A DNA stretch of 28,108 nt from a virus. Taxonomy: Duplodnaviria > Heunggongvirae > Uroviricota > Caudoviricetes. Numbering within the stretch: the stretch's first letter is position 1; every line of letters begins with the position of its first letter. The stretch lies in IMG/VR virus record IMGVR_UViG_2534682170_000012, one strand, 5' to 3'. The notes beneath the pieces are model-generated. The model searched no databases and was not told the origin of the DNA. It saw only the letters and a list, made by a program, of their open reading frames with translations. Both the position numbers and the translations under genes were made by a program. Below are positions 4,987 through 13,649 of the stretch, in pieces.

Positions 4987-7748
4987 GTGAGTTTGCATGG
5001 AGCTGGAATGAACCACGGCCAGCCATTGATCCGGACAGATTTACGGAGCGCAGGCAGGAAACTGAAACCGAGCTGCAACGCGCCATCCGTTACTACCTTG
5101 AGGCGGACAAAAAGGCCCGTAAAGAACAGGAAGCGAAGGAGGAAGCCTTTTTCGCACAATCCACCGTGGGTAAAAAACTCATGGCATCCCTTGAGGAAGC
5201 CGGACAGCGTGAAAAGCTGGCACAAAGCATCATCAGCAAGCGTCAGGCAACAGAACAAGACCCGGTGGCCCGTGCTTTTGCCACACTGAAGGTGCTTCCC
5301 GTTTATCTGCGTGAACCTCTGAGCCGCCACCTCTCTTTCCTGCGCAAAAAACAGGAATCCGATCGTCAGAAAGGCAAAAAGAGCTGGCAGGCTGAACGCT
5401 ACGCGCGCGGAACCCTGCGCAAAATATTCGTACGTCTGGACCGCACCGACAGCCGTTGGCTGACACCGGGTTATCGGTCCCTTGCCGGACGTGAACGCCT
5501 GGACGATTTGCTTTCCCTGCCGCAACTCAACAAACACCAGATACAGACGCTGGCCACCATGACGGCGGCGATGTTCAGCAGCACCTTCGAAAAACTCTGC
5601 GATGGTTTTGGCGCGACCGATGGCGAGCTGACCATGGATGTAACGCTGAAGGCGTATCAGATGCTGGCCCGCATGGCGTTACACTTGCACGCCATGCCTC
5701 CGCATTATGACGCACTGACAACAGACAAAGACCGGAGGAACGAACCGGACACAGAACTGCTGCCGGGCGCAATCCTTCGCCTGACCTGTGCGGAATGGTG
5801 GAAACGCAAACTGTGGCTGTTACGTTGCGAGTGGAGAGAAGAACAACTCCGCGCCGCCTGTCTGGTTTCCAGAAAAACATCGCCCTATTTGAGCCAGGAC
5901 GCGTTAAGCGAGTTTCGCGCACAGCGCGAGAAAACACGCGATTTCCTGAAAAGTTTCATGCTGGAAAACGAAGACGGGTTCACGATTGATCTCGAGACGG
6001 TGTATTACGCGGGAGTAAGTAACCCGGTTCACCGTAAGGCAGAAATGATGGCCACCATGAAGGGGCTGGAACTTCTGGCCGAAGCCCGTGGCGACAAAGC
6101 GGTGTTTCTGACTGTCACCTGCCCGTCAAAATACCACGCCACAACAGAGAACGGTCATCCGAATCCCAAATGGAACGGGGCCACCATGCGCGACTCCAGC
6201 GATTACCTGGTTAACACGTTTTTTGCGGCGGTCCGCAAAAAACTGAACCGCGACGGTCTTCGCTGGTATGGCATCCGCACGGTGGAGCCTCACCATGACG
6301 GCACCGTGCACTGGCATATGATGGTCTTTGCTCATCCGGAAGAAATCGACAGCATCGTGGCCATCACCCGCGATATTGCCATTCAGGAAGACCGCCACGA
6401 GCTGGGCAATGATATTACTCCGCGCTTTAAGGCGGAGTATGTCGACGGCTCAAAAGGCACACCAACCAGCTATATCGCGACCTACATCGGAAAGAACCTG
6501 GACAGCCGCGCCGTGGATGGCATCGACCCGAAAACGGGCAAGCCACGCGTTGACCACGAAACCGGAAAATCAATGGCCGAGAGTGTGGAGCGCGCCATCG
6601 GCTGGGCGCGCCTTCATCGGGTCCGCCAGTTCCAGTTCTTTGGCATCCCCTCCCGTCAGGTGTGGCGTGAACTGCGCCGCCTTGCCAGCCAGATGGCACG
6701 CAACCCGGAAGGCCCGCAACGACTGAAAGATGACGCAATGGATGCGGTACTCGCTGCCGCCGATGCCGGGTGTTTTGCCACCTACATTGAAAAACAGGGC
6801 GGCGTACTTGTTCCACGCAAAGACTACCTGATTCGCACCGCCTACGACCTCGCAGATGAGCTGAATGATTACGGCGAACAGAGCGTACAGATTTACGGGA
6901 TCTGGTCACCACTCATCGGGGAATCCTCCCGTGTGTGCACGCATCCGGATAACTGGAAACTGGTAAGACGTAAACCGGAAACGGAAGACAGCGCCCGCGA
7001 AAATGGTTTTGACCTTCAGGGCGGCCCTGCCGCCCCTTGGACTCGTGGCAATAACTGTCCCCGTGTACAGGAAACGGACAACAACGGGACAGAACAGCCG
7101 GAAGAACGGCCAGCACCGTGGCCGCGGCTTCCTGAAGGCGTTGACGTGAATGAATGGATGCGCTCACTGAAACGGCACGAACGCCGGGCACTGATGCGTT
7201 CGCTGCGTGACAAACAGGCAAAAAACAGCAGTGATGAAATGCAGAACTGGACACAGAGCCGCAAACAGCCACAGCCTTTGCCTGATAACCACGAGTTACT
7301 CGCTAAAGAATGGCGGGAGTCTGCTGAATCTCTCGGCCTGCATATCGGTGAACAGCAGATGCAGCACCTGTTACGAGGCGGCAGTCTGTACGTTGGCGGC
7401 AGCATCATTGCACCGCAGGGATTTGAAATTGTACGCAAACAGGATACCCGCCCGGACAGCCGAATCACGCAGCTCTGGCAACGCCTGAGTCGTAATCACG
7501 GCGTAAGCAGCACGGAGATCCGCCATAACCCGGTCGCCAGCTATCTGGAACAACTAGAGGCATCAGACCCTGAAGCCGCCGCACGCCTGGCATCCACACT
7601 TCAGCAAGACCAGAACACCATGAAAACACCCGTTACCGTACTTTCTGACATGCTGCGCGCCATCCGCGACGCAGAGCACGCACAGAGAATCAGTGAAACC
7701 ACTAAACATGCTCGCAAAAAAATCAGTTTATTGCATCGAACACGATAG
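4983..7748 (+). CDS. A: Rolling-circle replication initiation endonuclease, P2 gpA family
   Basis: VEPHHDGTVHWHMMVF (HUH-type motif) and paired tyrosines YIATYIGKN (Tyr codons at 6471-6473 and 6483-6485) match the remembered P2 gpA active region. Start taken as the ATG at 4983 rather than the ORF-track start at 4956. Confidence 0.88.
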   Translation: MSEFAWSWNEPRPAIDPDRFTERRQETETELQRAIRYYLEADKKARKEQEAKEEAFFAQSTVGKKLMASLEEAGQREKLAQSIISKRQATEQDPVARAFATLKVLPVYLREPLSRHLSFLRKKQESDRQKGKKSWQAERYARGTLRKIFVRLDRTDSRWLTPGYRSLAGRERLDDLLSLPQLNKHQIQTLATMTAAMFSSTFEKLCDGFGATDGELTMDVTLKAYQMLARMALHLHAMPPHYDALTTDKDRRNEPDTELLPGAILRLTCAEWWKRKLWLLRCEWREEQLRAACLVSRKTSPYLSQDALSEFRAQREKTRDFLKSFMLENEDGFTIDLETVYYAGVSNPVHRKAEMMATMKGLELLAEARGDKAVFLTVTCPSKYHATTENGHPNPKWNGATMRDSSDYLVNTFFAAVRKKLNRDGLRWYGIRTVEPHHDGTVHWHMMVFAHPEEIDSIVAITRDIAIQEDRHELGNDITPRFKAEYVDGSKGTPTSYIATYIGKNLDSRAVDGIDPKTGKPRVDHETGKSMAESVERAIGWARLHRVRQFQFFGIPSRQVWRELRRLASQMARNPEGPQRLKDDAMDAVLAAADAGCFATYIEKQGGVLVPRKDYLIRTAYDLADELNDYGEQSVQIYGIWSPLIGESSRVCTHPDNWKLVRRKPETEDSARENGFDLQGGPAAPWTRGNNCPRVQETDNNGTEQPEERPAPWPRLPEGVDVNEWMRSLKRHERRALMRSLRDKQAKNSSDEMQNWTQSRKQPQPLPDNHELLAKEWRESAESLGLHIGEQQMQHLLRGGSLYVGGSIIAPQGFEIVRKQDTRPDSRITQLWQRLSRNHGVSSTEIRHNPVASYLEQLEASDPEAAARLASTLQQDQNTMKTPVTVLSDMLRAIRDAEHAQRISETTKHARKKISLLHRTR

Positions 7749-7793
7749 AAATATAGAGCTAAGGCCGCCCTAGGAATAAGGAGGCCTTGAAAA

Positions 7794-8603
7794 TCAACCT
7801 ATCTTCTTATGAAGTAAAATTAATTTCTGTATTAATTTGGAATGAAACATTGATATATCAGAAATTCTTATTTCATTAGGCGAGTCTATATGATTGGAAA
7901 CTTCTTCCTCCAAGGAGTCACAAATACTTTCTAGATTTTCAATATCTGCATTTAATTCTGGAAAACTATTAAACAAATATAATGAATCCCGTAACTCTCC
8001 TAGTTTTGGTAAAAGAGTATTACTGAATACACTAAGAAACTCCTCTTCTGATAATGCCATGGAGTTTTTAAAACTTTGCACAACATCGAATGCCAACCCA
8101 TTAATTTTAGGCATAATTACTTCTCTTACCCAATACCCTTCATTAATAGCTTCTTTACGTTCTTTTCTATGTTGAACACAAGGAATAACAAAGGATGAAA
8201 CTAAAGCAAATAAAGAGATGCCAATAGAAATCCACTCTGGACCATTTTCCGGAACCTTTACAATATTATATATATCATAGGAATTTGGAACATCTTTGAA
8301 ATAATTAGCAAATAAATCTTTTTTGTTATCCCTTGCCAGAGATAACTTATGAAAGGTGTCGTTTGCCTTTTCACAAAACATCAAGCCATCATTCGGGTTT
8401 CCGGATAACAAAAACGGTGATGATATACCACTAAGTCCTGAATCGGAAATATAAAAAGGCGTGTTTGGATAAAGTGATTCATTACATTCAATGTTTTCTT
8501 TATTGGAAAAATCTGTCACAGAGCAAGCTGCGGGGAATATAAAAAAAATGACAGACAGCGCTGTCATTTTGATTTGAAAAATATTTTTAAAAGAAGGGAA
8601 CAT
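7794..8603 (-). CDS. Cargo gene 3: membrane protein with signal-peptide/lipobox-like N-terminus and one internal TM helix
   Basis: 269 aa, AT-rich. N-terminal hydrophobic segment ends in PAAC; internal hydrophobic helix WISIGISLFALVSSFVIPCV. Start 8603 overlaps gene 2; an alternative ATG is at 8565-8567. Confidence 0.5.
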   Translation of the reverse strand: MFPSFKNIFQIKMTALSVIFFIFPAACSVTDFSNKENIECNESLYPNTPFYISDSGLSGISSPFLLSGNPNDGLMFCEKANDTFHKLSLARDNKKDLFANYFKDVPNSYDIYNIVKVPENGPEWISIGISLFALVSSFVIPCVQHRKERKEAINEGYWVREVIMPKINGLAFDVVQSFKNSMALSEEEFLSVFSNTLLPKLGELRDSLYLFNSFPELNADIENLESICDSLEEEVSNHIDSPNEIRISDISMFHSKLIQKLILLHKKIG

Positions 8604-8931
8604 TTTTATGTAAGCCTCTCCTTACAGCTCTATCTAATTCAGAAAGCATACCTTCTTTATATTCACGACCATCAAGTACAGTGCGACTATAAAATTCGCT
8701 AGGCGAAGAAAATTTCGGCAAAACCGTTTCAAGCATACCTAGAAAGTATGAGCTTGATACAACAATTCCCTTGGGGATCAATAGATATAATCTATCATTA
8801 CTGGTTGTGCAAAATTTCCCTATATTAAAGTAATCATAGGCCTGGCGCCCATTAGAACGTCCAGCAAAAAGTTTCTTGTTACTATCTTTTACTAACTTAT
8901 TGAAATCTATGGTGATGTCAGCCATTTTCAT
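8587..8931 (-). CDS. Cargo gene 2: small STAS-like protein (anti-sigma-factor-antagonist-like)
   Basis: 114 aa; Ser-rich VVSSSYFLG (8737-8763) resembles the phospho-acceptor motif of SpoIIAA/RsbV-type STAS domains, and the size matches. GAGGA RBS; starts 10 nt after the gene 1 stop. Confidence 0.45.
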   Translation of the reverse strand: MKMADITIDFNKLVKDSNKKLFAGRSNGRQAYDYFNIGKFCTTSNDRLYLLIPKGIVVSSSYFLGMLETVLPKFSSPSEFYSRTVLDGREYKEGMLSELDRAVRRGLHKNVPFF

Positions 8932-8941
8932 GTACCTGTCC

Positions 8942-10321
8942 TCAAGTTCGCTGGGTGGCGTTTTCTGGTAGAGGAAAACGAATATTGATCATAACTCCAG
9001 GAAATCGAGCATCCTTCATACGCTTAAGATAGTTGCGATCCGGTTCAGATTCAAGCCCTACATCATTAAAAGGGTAAGTAAAAATGTCACTTTCCTCGTC
9101 ATTAACCAACCTTTGCTTTAATTTATATGATCCATCAAAGTTAATATGAGTACTACCAGATATTAAAGTCATTTTTATCCCACCTTTAATATCTCTTCCC
9201 ATTTTTTTAAGATTATCATGCATATCTTGAAATAACTTCAATAATTCAATTGTTCCGGTGCCAGAACTGTCAGTTTCTTTCTCGTTTTTACAACTCACCC
9301 GCCCTTGCAAGGCCGCTACTGTTGTTAATCCTTCCTTAAACATACCCTTTTTCTTAATATGCTTATTTATGTATGGATTAACTTGTTGACTTAATGAAAA
9401 ATGATCCTCAGGTAAATTATCAAAAGTTTCGCTGATAGTTTTCCCAAAATTGAAAACAGCCAACTCACATATGGGGTTTCGTACGTTATTATTAACAAAA
9501 CCTCTCAAATACCAGCGTGGGCGTTGCTCTAACCCACAATGCCGCTCCGCATTATCAAGGAGTTCCCCCATGCAGGAAGTTAAATGCTTTTCTGCCTCAT
9601 GTACAAGTTTTAAATTATGATCATTTAAGCATTCGTTTATGTATGCGGTAAATTTTTCAGCAGTGACATTTTTTCTGTCATGGGCAAAGGCAGAAGCATT
9701 CTCCTTTCCGATACTATCAGCAGAGAAGATTCGTTTCTTCGGATTCGCTTTTTTCGATGCTTCAGTAGAGTCCAGAACTTTACCTGGTGCAGCATTACTA
9801 ATCTCTTTTACAAGCCCGACATCCCTGATAATTTCAAGATACTGTTCATCTTTAGGGTAGATACCATTAATCTGAATCATCGTATCTTTGAAATTTATAT
9901 TACTTTGCCTTGCTGCTGTAAGAGCAACACCTAATAGACACTCAAGACCAAGACAGTGTTTTTTGTTTTTCTTGTAATCAAAAATATATGATTTCCATTT
10001 ACCTCTTGCAATTAATTTTGTGGCTGCACTAATAAATAGCAGAGATTTCTCTGGATTGTCATATAAGTCAAAATATTTAGGTATTAATATCTTCTCTGCG
10101 TCACGACGAAGAATTGATGAGTCATACTCTTTTATAATCGATATATTTTCAATGAACGTAGCGACTTGGTTTTGGACAGGAGTTGTTTCATCGGAAAAAC
10201 GAAGACTACCATTTTTCTCTTGCGCAGGCTTTTTTTTCTTAGCTCTCTCAACGCTACGAAGAAATCGCAACCATCCACGTAAAAAGGTTCTTTTAGAATC
10301 TTCTTTATTGATTTTTTTCAT
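8942..10321 (-). CDS. Cargo gene 1: large protein with GHKL/anti-sigma-kinase-like ATPase motifs
   Basis: ORF-track frame 8942-10417 begins at a TTG; the first ATG is at 10319-10321 (MKKINKED...). ELLDNAERHCG (9539-9565) resembles the N-box of SpoIIAB/RsbW-type Bergerat ATPases; Gly-rich DSSGTGT (9239-9271) lies downstream. Strongly AT-rich. Confidence 0.5.
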   Translation of the reverse strand: MKKINKEDSKRTFLRGWLRFLRSVERAKKKKPAQEKNGSLRFSDETTPVQNQVATFIENISIIKEYDSSILRRDAEKILIPKYFDLYDNPEKSLLFISAATKLIARGKWKSYIFDYKKNKKHCLGLECLLGVALTAARQSNINFKDTMIQINGIYPKDEQYLEIIRDVGLVKEISNAAPGKVLDSTEASKKANPKKRIFSADSIGKENASAFAHDRKNVTAEKFTAYINECLNDHNLKLVHEAEKHLTSCMGELLDNAERHCGLEQRPRWYLRGFVNNNVRNPICELAVFNFGKTISETFDNLPEDHFSLSQQVNPYINKHIKKKGMFKEGLTTVAALQGRVSCKNEKETDSSGTGTIELLKLFQDMHDNLKKMGRDIKGGIKMTLISGSTHINFDGSYKLKQRLVNDEESDIFTYPFNDVGLESEPDRNYLKRMKDARFPGVMINIRFPLPENATQRT

Positions 10322-10400
10322 TTCCAAATGTTCCTGCAAAGTTAACGTAGCCCACAAGGCGCTAAGTATACTTTCTGCTATATTTTTTTCACTATACAAA

Positions 10401-10428
10401 TGCACAATAGTGCACAAATTTGCACAAT
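10401..10428. repeat. Three direct TGCACAA repeats at 10-bp phasing upstream of the cargo operon; a fourth copy at 10493-10499
   Basis: TGCACAA at 10401, 10411 and 10421, read directly. Possible operator or packaging-recognition element. Confidence 0.3.
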
Positions 10429-10800
10429 TTTTTTGAACGACTTTTTGCCCTTCCGGCCCGCATGGTGGCTGGATCCGTCAAGGATCCGTGCGTGCACAAA
10501 AAAACGCATTTTTTCTGCGCGCAGGTGACGGGGGAACAGCCCGCGTTTCAGGGGGTAAATAGCATCCCCTGAACGATGTCGCAGCGACACAACAGAATGG
10601 CTGTATTTCTCACGCTGAGCGTGAAAAAGACGTGAGGGCTTTTGATTTGATGGGGTGAAAGGTAAGGCCGTCAAAATCGCACTGAGACGGCGAGAACATG
10701 CAGTCAACGCGGTGGGATTGCGTAAGAGTCTGACTGTCGATGATGGCAATCAGCAGGAAAGCGTCGTGAAATTATCTGACTGATACAGGAGCTGGAGAGT

Positions 10801-10851: not shown

Positions 10852-11898
10852 TCAGGATGTGGGCTGGGTGTCTAACAGTGCGTAAGGGTTAAAGCGGATC
10901 ACCTCTTCGCCAAGCCAGTCATTGATGTGCTTCATGGCCTCCATGACGGGCATCAGCTCGTTAATTGCGTAAACCCGCGCGGCCTTCTCCACATCACCAA
11001 ACGCACTTTTTTCGCCCGGCATCGCCCCCATCAGTTGCGGCGGAACGCGGTGCGCAGCCAGCACATCATCACGGGATGCCGCCTTAACATTCATGAACTC
11101 ATCTTTTGCGGTGATCTGCTGGAACGGCAAAATTTGCACCCCTTCTTTGCCCCCGTTGGGCGCATGAATGAGCACGTTTTTAAATGCACCACCACCACGC
11201 GCACCCTGTAACGTTTCTTTCAGGGAGTCCATGCTTTCGCGGTTTACCTGCGCTGCACCGATGTAGATGATGCACCCGGCGTGGGATCCGTTGTCGTAGT
11301 ACAGTTTTCTGAACATGTCCGCCGAATGAGAAAGGCTGGCCGAGAGTAATGCGCCAAGATATTCCGGCATGCCGTAGATTTCCTGGTTAATATCCGGATT
11401 CATCAGGTGGCACACTTTGCCAGGGCGAAACTGGAACGCGTCCTTGCCATCCTGCACATACCACCATGATTCAAGATCGCTTCCGCGTCGCATGTATTTC
11501 GCCAGGGCGTGCCGTAATTTAAGCGGTTCGCCGAGCATATTGCTCCGAAGCTCAAGGAATGCGTTACCGAACACAAACCAGTCCAGCGCCAGCGCCGAGA
11601 AATCCTGCCGGGAAAGCAGCGGGTGCGGGATGTAGCAACCGAGTAATACATTGCGCTTAAAGTAAAGCGCAGACTGATGCCAGGACGTTTGCCGGGCGGC
11701 TCTTGCCAGACCGTACCAGTCCACCGGGGTTTCATACCACCGCCCGTTATCAGCACAGTACATATTGTCCAGCAGGTCATGCCCGGTCAGGCGATAAGGA
11801 CCATCAAATGTGAATGCACTGAGCGATGATTCTTTCCTGAGCGCATCAGCGAGATCAATGCGTGAACTCATGCGCACTTTTTTATTTTTTCTGCTCAT
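10852..11898 (-). CDS. Q: Portal protein, P2 gpQ family
   Basis: 348 aa; size, position and orientation (convergent with the cargo operon, upstream partner of the terminase) as in P2. Confidence 0.85.
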   Translation of the reverse strand: MSRKNKKVRMSSRIDLADALRKESSLSAFTFDGPYRLTGHDLLDNMYCADNGRWYETPVDWYGLARAARQTSWHQSALYFKRNVLLGCYIPHPLLSRQDFSALALDWFVFGNAFLELRSNMLGEPLKLRHALAKYMRRGSDLESWWYVQDGKDAFQFRPGKVCHLMNPDINQEIYGMPEYLGALLSASLSHSADMFRKLYYDNGSHAGCIIYIGAAQVNRESMDSLKETLQGARGGGAFKNVLIHAPNGGKEGVQILPFQQITAKDEFMNVKAASRDDVLAAHRVPPQLMGAMPGEKSAFGDVEKAARVYAINELMPVMEAMKHINDWLGEEVIRFNPYALLDTQPTS

Positions 11899-13649
11899 CA
11901 GAACTCCATAACCGTGAAACGCTCGTTTTCTCCTTCGCCGCCAATTGGTTCGTTAATGACAGCAAGCATGGTTGCCCACGCAAGGTCGCCGTGGCTGATC
12001 CCCCTCGCGCGGTCCGTTTCGTAAGTGATAAAGCCGCCCGGTGTTTTCACCTTACGCACGGCGTTAAAGGCCGCGACCAGCTCGCGTTCGGCGCGATCGT
12101 ATTCCCACCGCCCTGCACGCATTATTTGCAGCATTTTCAGTACCAGCGACCGTTTTGATGACAGCGTGAAGGTGTACGGAATAGCGGCAGGGAAAAACCG
12201 TTTCACTATCTGATAAACAGCCTCCCCGTTCCCGCCCGTCACATCAATGCCGATGTGTTCCACGTTGTAGTGACACGTGAACTCTTCAATGACTCTGGCC
12301 TGTTCTTCAAACTCCAGCCCCTGAACGCGTCGCGTCTCCACCGTTCGAAAACGGCCACCAGGAACAGCCGGAGGAACCACCACGGACACAGCGCCGCTGT
12401 CGCCGTTGCCACTGCTGCCGTTTGCGTCATACCCAATCCATACCGGGCGATTCCCCATCGGGCGGGGAGCAAAAGGTTTCCAGTCTTTCCAGTCGTCGTA
12501 TCCGTCAACACCACAGCCAATCAGGATATTCAGGTTAAATGCCGATTCCCCTTCGCGGACAAACTCACACATATAGAGATTGAGGAACTCGTCTTCGGTG
12601 TTTTCATCACGAATTTCATCAATATCGGTGTGTTTCCAGCCGTGATTAACCACATCTTCCAGCGTGACAATTTGCCGCCACGTCCGGTCAGGGCAGATAA
12701 GCCCGTTATGCAGCGTTTTCCAGTCCACAGAAAAACGCTGGCGTTTATGCGTGGCCTTTTTCTCGTTCCAGCGGTCGCCGTTCCAGTAGGCGTATGCCTC
12801 GTGCGTTTCGGTGGATGGCGTGGAGAAGTAGGTGCGCCGCAGTCCGCTGAGGGTTGCCATAGCGCCAGCCACCTTGCGCAGTTCAGCAAAGCGACTGACC
12901 CAGAAGAATTCATCAAAATAAAAATTGCCCGTATAGGACTGTGCCGACGCAGCAGAAGTGCCGAGAAAATGCAGCTCTGCGCCGTTGGAGAGGATGATTT
13001 TATCGCCCCCTTTCAGCTCCACATCAACTTCAGCCGCGGCCTTCTGAATAATGCTTTTAAACTGGAACGCCTGACGACGCGACGCAGACAAAAAAATCTG
13101 GTTACGCTGATAAGGTTGCACCACATCGTCACGCAGCGCCATCAGCAGTGCTTCCTGTGCAAAATACCAGGTCGCCCCAATCTGTCGGGATTTCAGGATC
13201 ATCCTGTTACGTATCCCGGCTTCCCTGCAAAGGGTCAGGGAGTCAAACCAGCCCCGCTGATGCCACTCCAGCCTGCTGATGATTTTTTCCCGCAGTGCGG
13301 CAATCTGTTCCGGCGTGAAATGATTTTTGAGTTTTTTCGCCCGGCCTTTCTTTCCTGCGGCCATCACATCCGGCTGGCCATCATGCAGCTTTTTAAGCTG
13401 CCGTGTCAGCAGGTCTATTTCCTTGAAGTCACCGCCTGTTTTATTCTGTTTTTCAGTAAGCTGGATGAGGCGCGCATCAATGGATTGCGTGACACGCTGC
13501 ACGGGTGGCGTTTCATCCCACTGGTCGCGTTTTTTCCACGCATAAATCGTGTTCGGGTTTATTCCCATCAGACGTGATATTTCTGCGGGCGGATAACCCT
13601 GCCAGTAAAGTTGTCGCGCACGCTGGCGCACAAAAGCGTCCTGAATCAT
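11898..13649 (-). CDS. P: Terminase large (ATPase) subunit, P2 gpP family
   Basis: 583 aa; N-terminus MIQDAFVRQRARQLYWQGYPPAEISRLMGINPNTIYAWKKRDQWDE is gpP-like. Divergent from the O-N-M-L operon as in P2. Confidence 0.88.
   Translation of the reverse strand: MIQDAFVRQRARQLYWQGYPPAEISRLMGINPNTIYAWKKRDQWDETPPVQRVTQSIDARLIQLTEKQNKTGGDFKEIDLLTRQLKKLHDGQPDVMAAGKKGRAKKLKNHFTPEQIAALREKIISRLEWHQRGWFDSLTLCREAGIRNRMILKSRQIGATWYFAQEALLMALRDDVVQPYQRNQIFLSASRRQAFQFKSIIQKAAAEVDVELKGGDKIILSNGAELHFLGTSAASAQSYTGNFYFDEFFWVSRFAELRKVAGAMATLSGLRRTYFSTPSTETHEAYAYWNGDRWNEKKATHKRQRFSVDWKTLHNGLICPDRTWRQIVTLEDVVNHGWKHTDIDEIRDENTEDEFLNLYMCEFVREGESAFNLNILIGCGVDGYDDWKDWKPFAPRPMGNRPVWIGYDANGSSGNGDSGAVSVVVPPAVPGGRFRTVETRRVQGLEFEEQARVIEEFTCHYNVEHIGIDVTGGNGEAVYQIVKRFFPAAIPYTFTLSSKRSLVLKMLQIMRAGRWEYDRAERELVAAFNAVRKVKTPGGFITYETDRARGISHGDLAWATMLAVINEPIGGEGENERFTVMEF

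Follow-up and report, generated by a model that had tools for sequence, protein, structure and literature searches.

A P2-like prophage cargo cassette of Escherichia coli places a predicted single-pass membrane protein behind a kinase/STAS gene pair in an arrangement parallel to VapKSC

The cargo cassette, its partner genes and its distribution

The stretch of DNA analysed here (the window; 28,108 nucleotides, IMG/VR record IMGVR_UViG_2534682170_000012) is an E. coli P2-like prophage whose cargo is a cassette of three genes encoding a kinase, a STAS-like protein and a membrane protein (genes 1, 2 and 3), the last of which is our main subject. The three genes follow one another on the minus strand between the gene for the gpA replication endonuclease (plus strand, ending at 7748) and the portal/terminase genes (10852-13649, minus strand), which is the cargo hotspot of P2. 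From the starts assigned by PGAP, gene 1 (8942-10321) encodes 459 amino acids (aa) and gene 2 (8587-8925) 112 aa, the longest open reading frame (ORF) of gene 2 beginning at 8931, while gene 3 (7794-8603; 21 homolog clusters) is an ATG-initiated ORF of 269 aa with its stop codon at 7794-7796 (WP_001548207.1). Our coordinates are the same as those of PGAP, which names all three products 'hypothetical protein'. At its start, gene 3 shares 17 nucleotides with gene 2, and it is the last gene of the operon, as an earlier reading made without database searches (the sequence-only reading) had stated: it is the third of the three minus-strand genes, and terminator-like sites follow its stop.

With a GC content of 34.9% against 54-56% in the flanking phage genes, the cargo is foreign to the prophage that carries it. 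E. coli WS1933D has 100% identical DNA over window positions 7600-10800, and the full cassette is present in 23 of 5,426 complete E. coli genomes. It has been catalogued before, as P2-hotspot system no. 19, 'HATPase_c | DUF4325', with 155 occurrences (WP_000723541, WP_000763711 and WP_001548207) and the Phobius-based remarks 'signal peptide in protein 3' and '1 TM in protein 3', where TM denotes a transmembrane helix (Rousset et al. 2022, Table S5B). The cassette sequences occur in that catalogue table only and are missing from the tables of cloned systems, and the study gives no mechanism, family analysis or partner-switching link for system 19. Identity with the validated 'hp + hp + hp' system of the same study (pFR109; Rst_3HP) was rejected, the sequences in its Table S2A being unrelated. 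Our literature search found neither a paper citing the cassette accessions nor a named system of kinase/STAS/membrane-protein composition.

Gene 1 has the fold of a STAS domain joined to a SpoIIAB-like kinase. A basic helix at its N-terminus is followed by a STAS-fold domain and then by a GHKL Ser-kinase-like domain; the closest structural neighbours of its C-terminal half are SpoIIAB and RsbW, and those of its N-terminal domain are STAS domains of the RsbV/SpoIIAA type. Its invariant residues E253, N257, H261, N291-x-G293 and G354-x-G356 make up the N, G1 and G2 boxes of GHKL proteins. In gene 2, S58-S59 of a V-V-S-S-S-Y-F-L-G motif are invariant, and invariant residues are dense in the C-terminal tail (E96, R99, A100, R103). 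Its assignment to DUF4325, which Pfam describes as a 'STAS-like domain', comes from HHpred (Rousset et al. 2022, Table S5B); HMMER searches with 34 gene 2 members returned no match in Pfam or the PDB. Sequence searches of the PDB with single cassette sequences and with profiles were likewise without a match, gene 1 weakly matched phrog_3364, a family of no known function, and the sole signal in a scan of diverged relatives was a sub-threshold HATPase_c_2 match of one gene 1 relative.

The 14 loci searched cover 8 distinct contexts, and at every locus hidden Markov models (HMMs) of genes 1, 2 and 3 matched with the gene order kept; the three-gene layout is repeated in four more loci (L030-L033), as judged from their called genes. 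This co-occurrence of the three genes in every locus examined is new here. The triad is found in Escherichia, Citrobacter, Raoultella, Morganella, Proteus, Aeromonas and Vibrio, and its contexts include P2 hotspots of several Enterobacterales, an Aeromonas prophage, where it adjoins a methylase gene and an SRA-HNH gene, a Vibrio island outside prophages, where it adjoins HsdR and AAA_15 genes, and a metagenomic contig with a short, 177-aa variant of gene 3. At one locus (L014), a P2-like prophage carries it not in the gpA-portal hotspot but between the genes for the cI repressor and the integrase. In the source annotation of this locus, gene 3 (6732-7340) is under-called as a 93-aa ORF (7059-7340); the full ORF of 202 aa has a signal-like N-terminus and matches the gene 3 family HMM with an E-value of 2e-34. 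Another locus (L010) is a 3,147-bp contig (DEQA01000158.1) of a metagenome-assembled genome labelled 'Planococcaceae bacterium UBA3378', whose proteins are 99% identical to those of the E. coli cassette; this contig is almost certainly a mis-binned or contaminating fragment of an enterobacterial prophage and not Firmicutes DNA.

On either side of the cassette, a few further features were observed. Two overlapping terminator-like stem-loops (7754-7773, minus strand; terminator-like scan) lie directly past the gene 3 stop, within the 45-bp gap between the convergent stops of gene 3 (7794) and gpA (7748); they mark a candidate operon end and may be a terminator shared by the two converging genes. 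On the other side, ~400 bp of the interval between gene 1 and the portal gene (10401-10800) recur with 92-97% identity in many isolated P2-like phages (among them P88, 500465-2 and Chuche), none of which carries the cargo; this segment forms the hotspot's conserved boundary on the portal side. A terminator-like site is also located between gene 1 and the portal gene, at 10520-10504 on the minus strand.

Topology and family of the gene 3 product

The sequence-only reading had described the gene 3 product as a membrane protein with a signal peptide and a single internal helix, and this description agrees with the hydropathy and the charge distribution of the sequence, with conservation in the family, with an AlphaFold2 model and with the published Phobius prediction. 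A signal peptide and a TM helix are both predicted with Met1, the likelier start, as the first residue. Met13 was considered as the true start since AUG13 lies in an mRNA hairpin (see below) and two database entries begin there, but we judge it less likely because members of the wider family have no internal Met, because the basic n-region requires a Met1-type start overlapping the end of gene 2 and because all indels that fall between Met1 and Met13 preserve the frame. The predicted signal peptide (residues 1-26; 8526-8603, minus strand) has the positively charged N-terminus and the hydrophobic segment noticed earlier, namely an n-region MFPSFKNIFQIK (K6 and K12, net charge +2) and a 14-residue h-region MTALSVIFFIFPAA, and is followed by Cys27 (codon at 8523-8525, minus strand). 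The next segment, residues 28-123 (8235-8522, minus strand), is assigned to the periplasm and stands out by its low conservation and an AlphaFold2 pLDDT (predicted local distance difference test) below 50. It leads into the TM helix WISIGISLFALVSSFVIPCV (residues 124-143, W124-V143; 8175-8234, minus strand), the sole hydrophobic segment besides the signal peptide, with a Kyte-Doolittle 19-residue mean of 2.26 over residues 125-143. The C-terminal domain (residues 144-269; 7797-8174, minus strand) opens with the stop-transfer sequence QHRKERKE and contains an INEGYW-x-REVI-x-PK signature and a four-helix bundle.

In the AlphaFold2 model, built with 21 homologs, residues 1-120 are without a confident fold, a single long helix spans residues 123-152 and a confident four-helix bundle is formed by residues 155-268 (pLDDT 85-92). 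Since the TM helix is preceded by the acidic sequence PENGPE and followed by the basic QHRKERKE, the positive-inside rule predicts that the C-terminal domain resides in the cytoplasm. This domain is acidic, as previously claimed (126 aa, net charge -7, pI 5.1), and so is the external part (residues 27-123; net charge -6, pI 4.6); the lengths given earlier need correction, as the external part has 97 and not roughly 110 residues and the cytoplasmic part 126 and not roughly 115. Taken together, sequence and model support well a topology in which the protein would cross the inner membrane once, N-out/C-in after signal cleavage, and the sequence likewise gives good support to a predicted export by an N-terminal signal peptide ending in a conserved Cys.

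Whether this Cys is lipid-modified is a separate matter. The lipobox-like cysteine that the sequence-only reading had placed at PAAC holds as to the position of the Cys, which is retained in 20 of the 21 close clusters with an A or G always before it, and fails as a strict lipobox: F-P-A-A-C lies outside both PROSITE PS51257 and the classical pattern [LVI][ASTVI][GAS]C, the Pro at -3 being the sole reason in the case of PS51257. The clade of the window protein has F-P-[AT]-A-C, with Pro at -3, while sister sequences with L or I at this position (LTAC, ITAC, LCAC, LTGC) pass PS51257, the ISAC of P0016 matches the classical lipobox and fails PS51257, and remoter relatives have textbook lipoboxes including SIIGC-D and LIGAC. 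Among 51 family members, 18 have N-termini that pass PS51257, 18 have an off-consensus [AGS]-C and 11 a signal-like N-terminus devoid of Cys; three have no external part and one falls outside all classes. The n- and h-regions of the window protein, with K6 and K12, 14 hydrophobic residues and the Cys at position 27, lie within the ranges of lipoproteins (an h-region of 7-22 residues and a Cys at positions 15-35). Cys27 is a candidate for the lipid-modified +1 residue and probably is modified. Ser, the default residue for sorting to the outer membrane in E. coli, occupies position +2 in the window protein, while two of the 18 relatives that pass PS51257 have Asp, the classical signal for retention in the inner membrane. 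Lipidation is not essential to the gene 3 family, because the 11 Cys-less relatives also have signal-like N-termini.

A possible, somewhat less probable account of the N-terminus is that it serves as an ordinary Sec signal, which signal peptidase I would cut (after A-C-S28, for example), or else stays uncleaved as an anchor; Cys27 would then be kept for some different purpose, e.g. a disulfide with Cys77 in the periplasm. The almost invariant presence of Cys77 within the close clade would suit this account, as would the Pro at -3 that breaks both lipobox patterns, the Cys-less relatives and the downstream TM helix that anchors the protein anyway. Against it stand the Cys at the exact position in nearly all close clusters with A or G before it, the passing of the strict pattern by the clade members with L or I at -3 and by the 18 relatives, including the two with Asp at +2, and the 14-residue h-region, which is too short for a stable TM anchor. 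As a separate observation, several diverged members of the family (e.g. P0016, P0018, P0019, P0081, P0086, P0090 and P0092) have two external Cys spaced as C-x(8-11)-C within C[LI]xxxxxxL[KQ]xC, as would fit a disulfide loop in the periplasm; of the two, the window protein has the second Cys (C77) alone.

The gene 3 family is small. We found 21 clusters among 5.8 billion proteins and 38 representatives (E <= 1e-3) among 1.84 billion proteins; two of ~185,000 genomes in a scan of species representatives contain the family, and no isolated phage genome does, also when searched by tblastn. Conservation within the close clade is uneven, with mean column values of 0.46 for residues 28-110, 0.82 for the juxtamembrane residues 111-123, 0.72 for the TM helix, 0.84 for residues 144-170 and 0.65 for the remaining bundle. 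The juxtamembrane motif I-Y-N-x-V-x-V-P-E-x-G-P-E (111-123) is conserved, in contrast to the highly variable residues 28-110, which are only 18-20% identical in loci whose gene 1 and gene 2 products are 56-71% and 62-75% identical, respectively. Across 44 diverged members, W158 and P165 of the INEGYW-x-REVI-x-PK signature are invariant, and S126, S130, A133 and S137, which lie at 180-240 degrees on the helical wheel of the TM helix, are small residues in 91-100%. Such a Ser/Ala face is a helix-packing motif, which argues that the TM helix of gene 3 is not merely a passive anchor. The length of the cytoplasmic domain is nearly constant (~126 aa), whereas the external part ranges from 18 to 141 aa; the core common to all members consists of the TM helix and the cytoplasmic domain. 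The three members without an external part retain the kinase/STAS/TM triad wherever the context was checked. No PIN fold or motif was detected in gene 3. A weak structural match to gene 3 in BFVD (E 0.13, probability 0.80) is P51700, a 23.2-kDa protein from the int-C1 intergenic region of Haemophilus phage HP1, a P2-like phage, at the same int/cI moron position as the L014 triad; P51700 may be a distant analogue of gene 3, or the match may be due to chance.

A conserved RNA hairpin at the 5' end of gene 3

The 5' end of gene 3 holds a potential mRNA hairpin (8545-8570, minus strand), detected by the terminator-like scan and by RNAfold, in which AAAAUGACAG pairs with CUGUCAUUUU around the loop CGCUGU and a U-run follows. 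It covers codons 12-20, including AUG13, and has a 10-bp stem, a 6-nucleotide loop and at least 8 U; it is the minimum-free-energy structure, with an RNAfold z-score of -3.2. Across 9 distinct homologs the stem is kept while the loop varies, and all 90 cells of the stem alignment are paired. Two compensatory changes from A-U to G-C pairs both alter the protein (Thr to Ala with Val to Ala, and Lys to Arg with Phe to Leu), and two further changes are G-U wobbles; the observed pairing and compensation were matched in 10 of 500 shuffles. These alignments are suggestive of selection on RNA structure at codons 12-20. With a stable stem-loop, an adjacent U-run and conservation, the hairpin has the hallmarks of an intrinsic terminator or attenuator, and since its stem is AU-rich, with three G-C pairs, any termination is likely to be partial. 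Plausible roles are partial termination, a damping of translation ahead of a toxic gene or the masking of AUG13.

Inside the hairpin lies the 12-bp perfect palindrome GACAGCGCTGTC to which the sequence-only reading had drawn attention. It is indeed present, at 8554-8565 and hence one base away from the 8553-8564 given before; no significance attaches to it. The window contains four perfect 12-mer palindromes, compared with 7.1 +/- 2.6 in shuffled sequences, and GACAGCGCTGTC is not conserved in the homologs. Being neither enriched nor conserved, the palindrome was rejected as a site of protein binding or any other element of significance.

Parallels with VapKSC and the possible role of gene 3

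VapKSC consists of a STAS-GHKL kinase, a STAS antitoxin and a PIN toxin that together protect against phage (Chambers et al., EMBO J 2026, PMC13373217). Its antitoxin VapS, a protein of 116 aa with an essential Ser48 and an inhibitory C-terminal tail, was shown experimentally to act as such, inhibition being lost in a phosphomimetic mutant, and in the related CapK/CapS pair the HTH-STAS-GHKL (HTH, helix-turn-helix) protein CapK phosphorylates the STAS protein CapS (PMC13373217). The cassette and VapKSC share several traits: both operons run from a kinase through a small STAS-like protein to a third gene, both occur in mobile or defence contexts of Enterobacteria, both kinases combine STAS with a SpoIIAB-like GHKL domain, gene 1 having its STAS domain fused N-terminally as in VapK, and the small proteins are of similar length (~112-116 aa) and appear alike in an invariant Ser at the same motif position and a conserved C-terminal tail. 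Using the VapK and VapS sequences from the AlphaFold3 files of PMC13373217, we found that VapS is a strong member of Pfam DUF4325 (E 2.7e-17), the same label that HHpred gave to gene 2, and that VapK matches HATPase_c. The two systems also differ, as gene 3 encodes a four-helix-bundle membrane protein with a signal peptide and one TM helix whereas VapC is a cytoplasmic PIN RNase, so that the PIN nuclease of the third position has no counterpart in gene 3, and gene 1 (459 aa) has an extra N-terminal basic helix and insertions compared with VapK (302 aa). Thus, the architecture of the cassette parallels that of VapKSC, with gene 3 in the toxin slot, and the cassette is not a demonstrable member of the VapKSC family at the sequence level.

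A similar three-part logic is seen in P4-hotspot system no. 69, which is listed as 'HATPase_c | DUF4325' with a 165-aa 1-TM protein (Rousset et al. 2022, Table S1B). Its second protein is a clear DUF4325 member (E 2.5e-14), and its third protein, in which a short N-terminus and a single TM helix precede a helical cytoplasmic domain, resembles the short members of the gene 3 family. The kinases align weakly, and homology between the third proteins is undetectable (hhalign probability < 1%). As the third proteins are thus unrelated (a PIN protein in VapKSC, a 1-TM protein in P4 system 69, and gene 3), the third slot appears to hold an exchangeable output, which suggests a wider class of kinase-STAS systems, including kinase-STAS-membrane-protein operons, with independently recruited outputs. 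The cassette also shares with the SpoIIAB-SpoIIAA and RsbW-RsbV modules the domains of gene 1 and the pairing with a small STAS-like protein bearing a conserved Ser. It differs from these modules in that its operon has neither a sigma factor nor a PP2C phosphatase, its kinase has a STAS domain of its own and its third component is a membrane protein.

Abortive infection systems such as RT-nitrilase + 1TM, Hydrolase + 3TM and 2TM + 1TM + TIR (Rousset et al. 2022) offer a further comparison: their sensing or enzymatic component is joined by a small TM protein that is encoded at the end of the hotspot operon and is usually presumed to be the killer. Gene 3 resembles these effectors in kind and position, and differs from them by its signal peptide, its periplasmic segment and its large cytoplasmic bundle; it shows no sequence or specific fold relation to them. 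Another likeness, in topology only, is with phage lysis proteins. Unimolecular spanins of the phage T1 gp11 type have an N-terminal lipoprotein signal, a periplasmic segment and a C-terminal TM helix in the inner membrane, and gene 3 likewise has an N-terminal signal, a periplasmic segment of ~90-100 aa and a TM helix. In contrast to spanins, gene 3 adds a 126-aa cytoplasmic domain, has an off-consensus lipobox, shows no sequence similarity to them and is not part of a lysis cassette; moreover, some of its relatives have Asp at +2 or are without the Cys or the periplasmic part.

From these parallels we tentatively favour the view that gene 3 may encode a membrane effector gated by a kinase/STAS partner switch. 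The sequence-only reading had left the choice between an effector and an envelope sensor; the former fares better, by analogy and operon position, because the third gene of a VapKSC-type operon is the toxin, gene 1 has the kinase fold and gene 2 is STAS-like by published HHpred, while the latter fares worse, the external part being variable and sometimes missing. According to the effector model, the gene 2 protein would bind the cytoplasmic bundle of gene 3 in uninfected cells and keep gene 3 inert. An infection cue would activate the gene 1 kinase, which would phosphorylate the invariant Ser58/59 of gene 2, whereupon gene 2 would release gene 3. Once released, gene 3 could self-associate through its TM face into an assembly that damages the integrity of the inner membrane, and growth would stop before the phage cycle is completed. 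We infer the steps from gene 2 binding to phosphorylation-induced release and membrane damage by analogy with VapKSC and SpoIIAB/SpoIIAA. Since such a design requires more antitoxin than toxin, the hairpin and its U-run may serve to keep expression of gene 3 below that of gene 2. A more elaborate version, which we regard as doubtful, holds that the cassette represents a distinct anti-phage family in which a SpoIIAB-type switch gates a membrane effector at the protein level, release of the bundle resulting in a membrane lesion through the Ser/Ala face of the TM helix, and in which the attenuator hairpin within the signal-peptide codons sets the ratio of antitoxin to toxin; in this version, a second input, from the envelope, could come through the periplasmic tail, which is hypervariable and sometimes targeted to the outer membrane.

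Several results weigh against a partner-switched membrane effector. The gene 1 profile matched VapK alone only weakly (E 0.15), and the match to VapK together with the P4 system 69 kinase is also weak (E 1.3e-3, probability 18%, 299 aligned columns covering STAS and GHKL in full); in the register of this weak gene 1/VapK alignment, E156 and N160 of VapK are opposite E253 and N257 of gene 1. For gene 2 and VapS, hhalign gave a probability < 1%, with S48 opposite S58 in that non-significant alignment. F54 of VapK, a contact to single-stranded DNA that corresponds to W68 of CapK, is opposite a Lys of gene 1 in a low-confidence alignment, and as this apparent counterpart is non-aromatic, the VapKSC trigger cannot be assumed to hold for the cassette. 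No significant match of any of the three cassette proteins was found in Pfam or NCBIfam, none of the families in the PADLOC-DB v2.0.0 HMMs matched them at E <= 0.01, and PHROGs returned no match for gene 3. The gene 3 bundle contains no insertable hydrophobic helix, and fold searches with gene 3 were uninformative. The cassette, moreover, is known from sequence and a catalogue entry and is not among the systems cloned by Rousset et al., and its fast-evolving external segment could point to ligand recognition.

This last point is also what favours a sensor or membrane anchor, a role we consider possible and rather unlikely, in which the external segment or the TM helix of gene 3 would detect an envelope perturbation, phage adsorption or DNA injection and signal through the bundle to the STAS protein and the kinase, the kinase being the true effector that phosphorylates host or phage targets. 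An external part that is hypervariable fits such a role, whereas its absence from some members does not; that it is the least conserved segment, varies from 18 to 141 aa and is missing in three relatives that keep the triad weakens the case for an obligatory envelope sensor. The same dispensability counts against gene 3 as an envelope protein for superinfection exclusion that blocks DNA entry or receptor use, in the manner of known prophage lipoproteins and inner-membrane proteins, and is merely regulated by the kinase/STAS pair, since the external part would be expected to be essential for that function. We deem exclusion improbable, even though the signal peptide with its lipoprotein-type Cys, the exposed and variable periplasmic segment and the position of this prophage cargo, at the locus where P2 carries the exclusion genes old and tin, would all accord with it: conservation is highest in the TM face and in the cytoplasmic bundle, exclusion proteins are not known to be strictly linked to a kinase and a STAS protein, and the triad also occurs outside prophages, on the Vibrio island.

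Equally improbable in our estimate is a cassette that has no immune function and instead constitutes a module of prophage or host physiology, for example a stress-response partner switch acting on an envelope protein. P2-hotspot cargo is not defensive in every case, Rousset et al. noting partition systems and toxins there, the authors of the CapK/CapS work stress that kinase modules may answer general stress (PMC13373217), and the cassette has no match in defence libraries. The type of locus, the low GC content, the rapid diversification of gene 3 and the restriction and ATPase defence genes that lie alongside in non-prophage contexts speak instead for immunity, as does the protection against a phage by the analogue VapKSC.

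Kinase and STAS partner switching in bacterial immunity was first shown in 2026, for CapK/CapS and VapKSC (PMC13373217). What was known of the present cassette is its catalogue entry, and what is new, besides the co-occurrence of the three genes, is the parallel with VapKSC with a membrane protein in the toxin slot. With 155 P2 loci in the survey of Rousset et al. and 23 of 5,426 E. coli genomes, the cassette is of notable frequency, and it is compact (2.6 kb). Its conserved intragenic hairpin is an equally compact candidate for dosage control of a toxic gene within an operon. If gene 3 is the killer, it would be a single-pass membrane effector of a new type, characterised by a defined helix-packing face, and if it is a sensor, it would provide a rare case of envelope-level phage sensing coupled to a Ser kinase. 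With the cassette, a membrane protein would join transcription factors and a PIN toxin among the outputs of kinase-STAS logic and, if so, the kinase-STAS pair would act as a portable 'trigger' to which unrelated outputs can be coupled.

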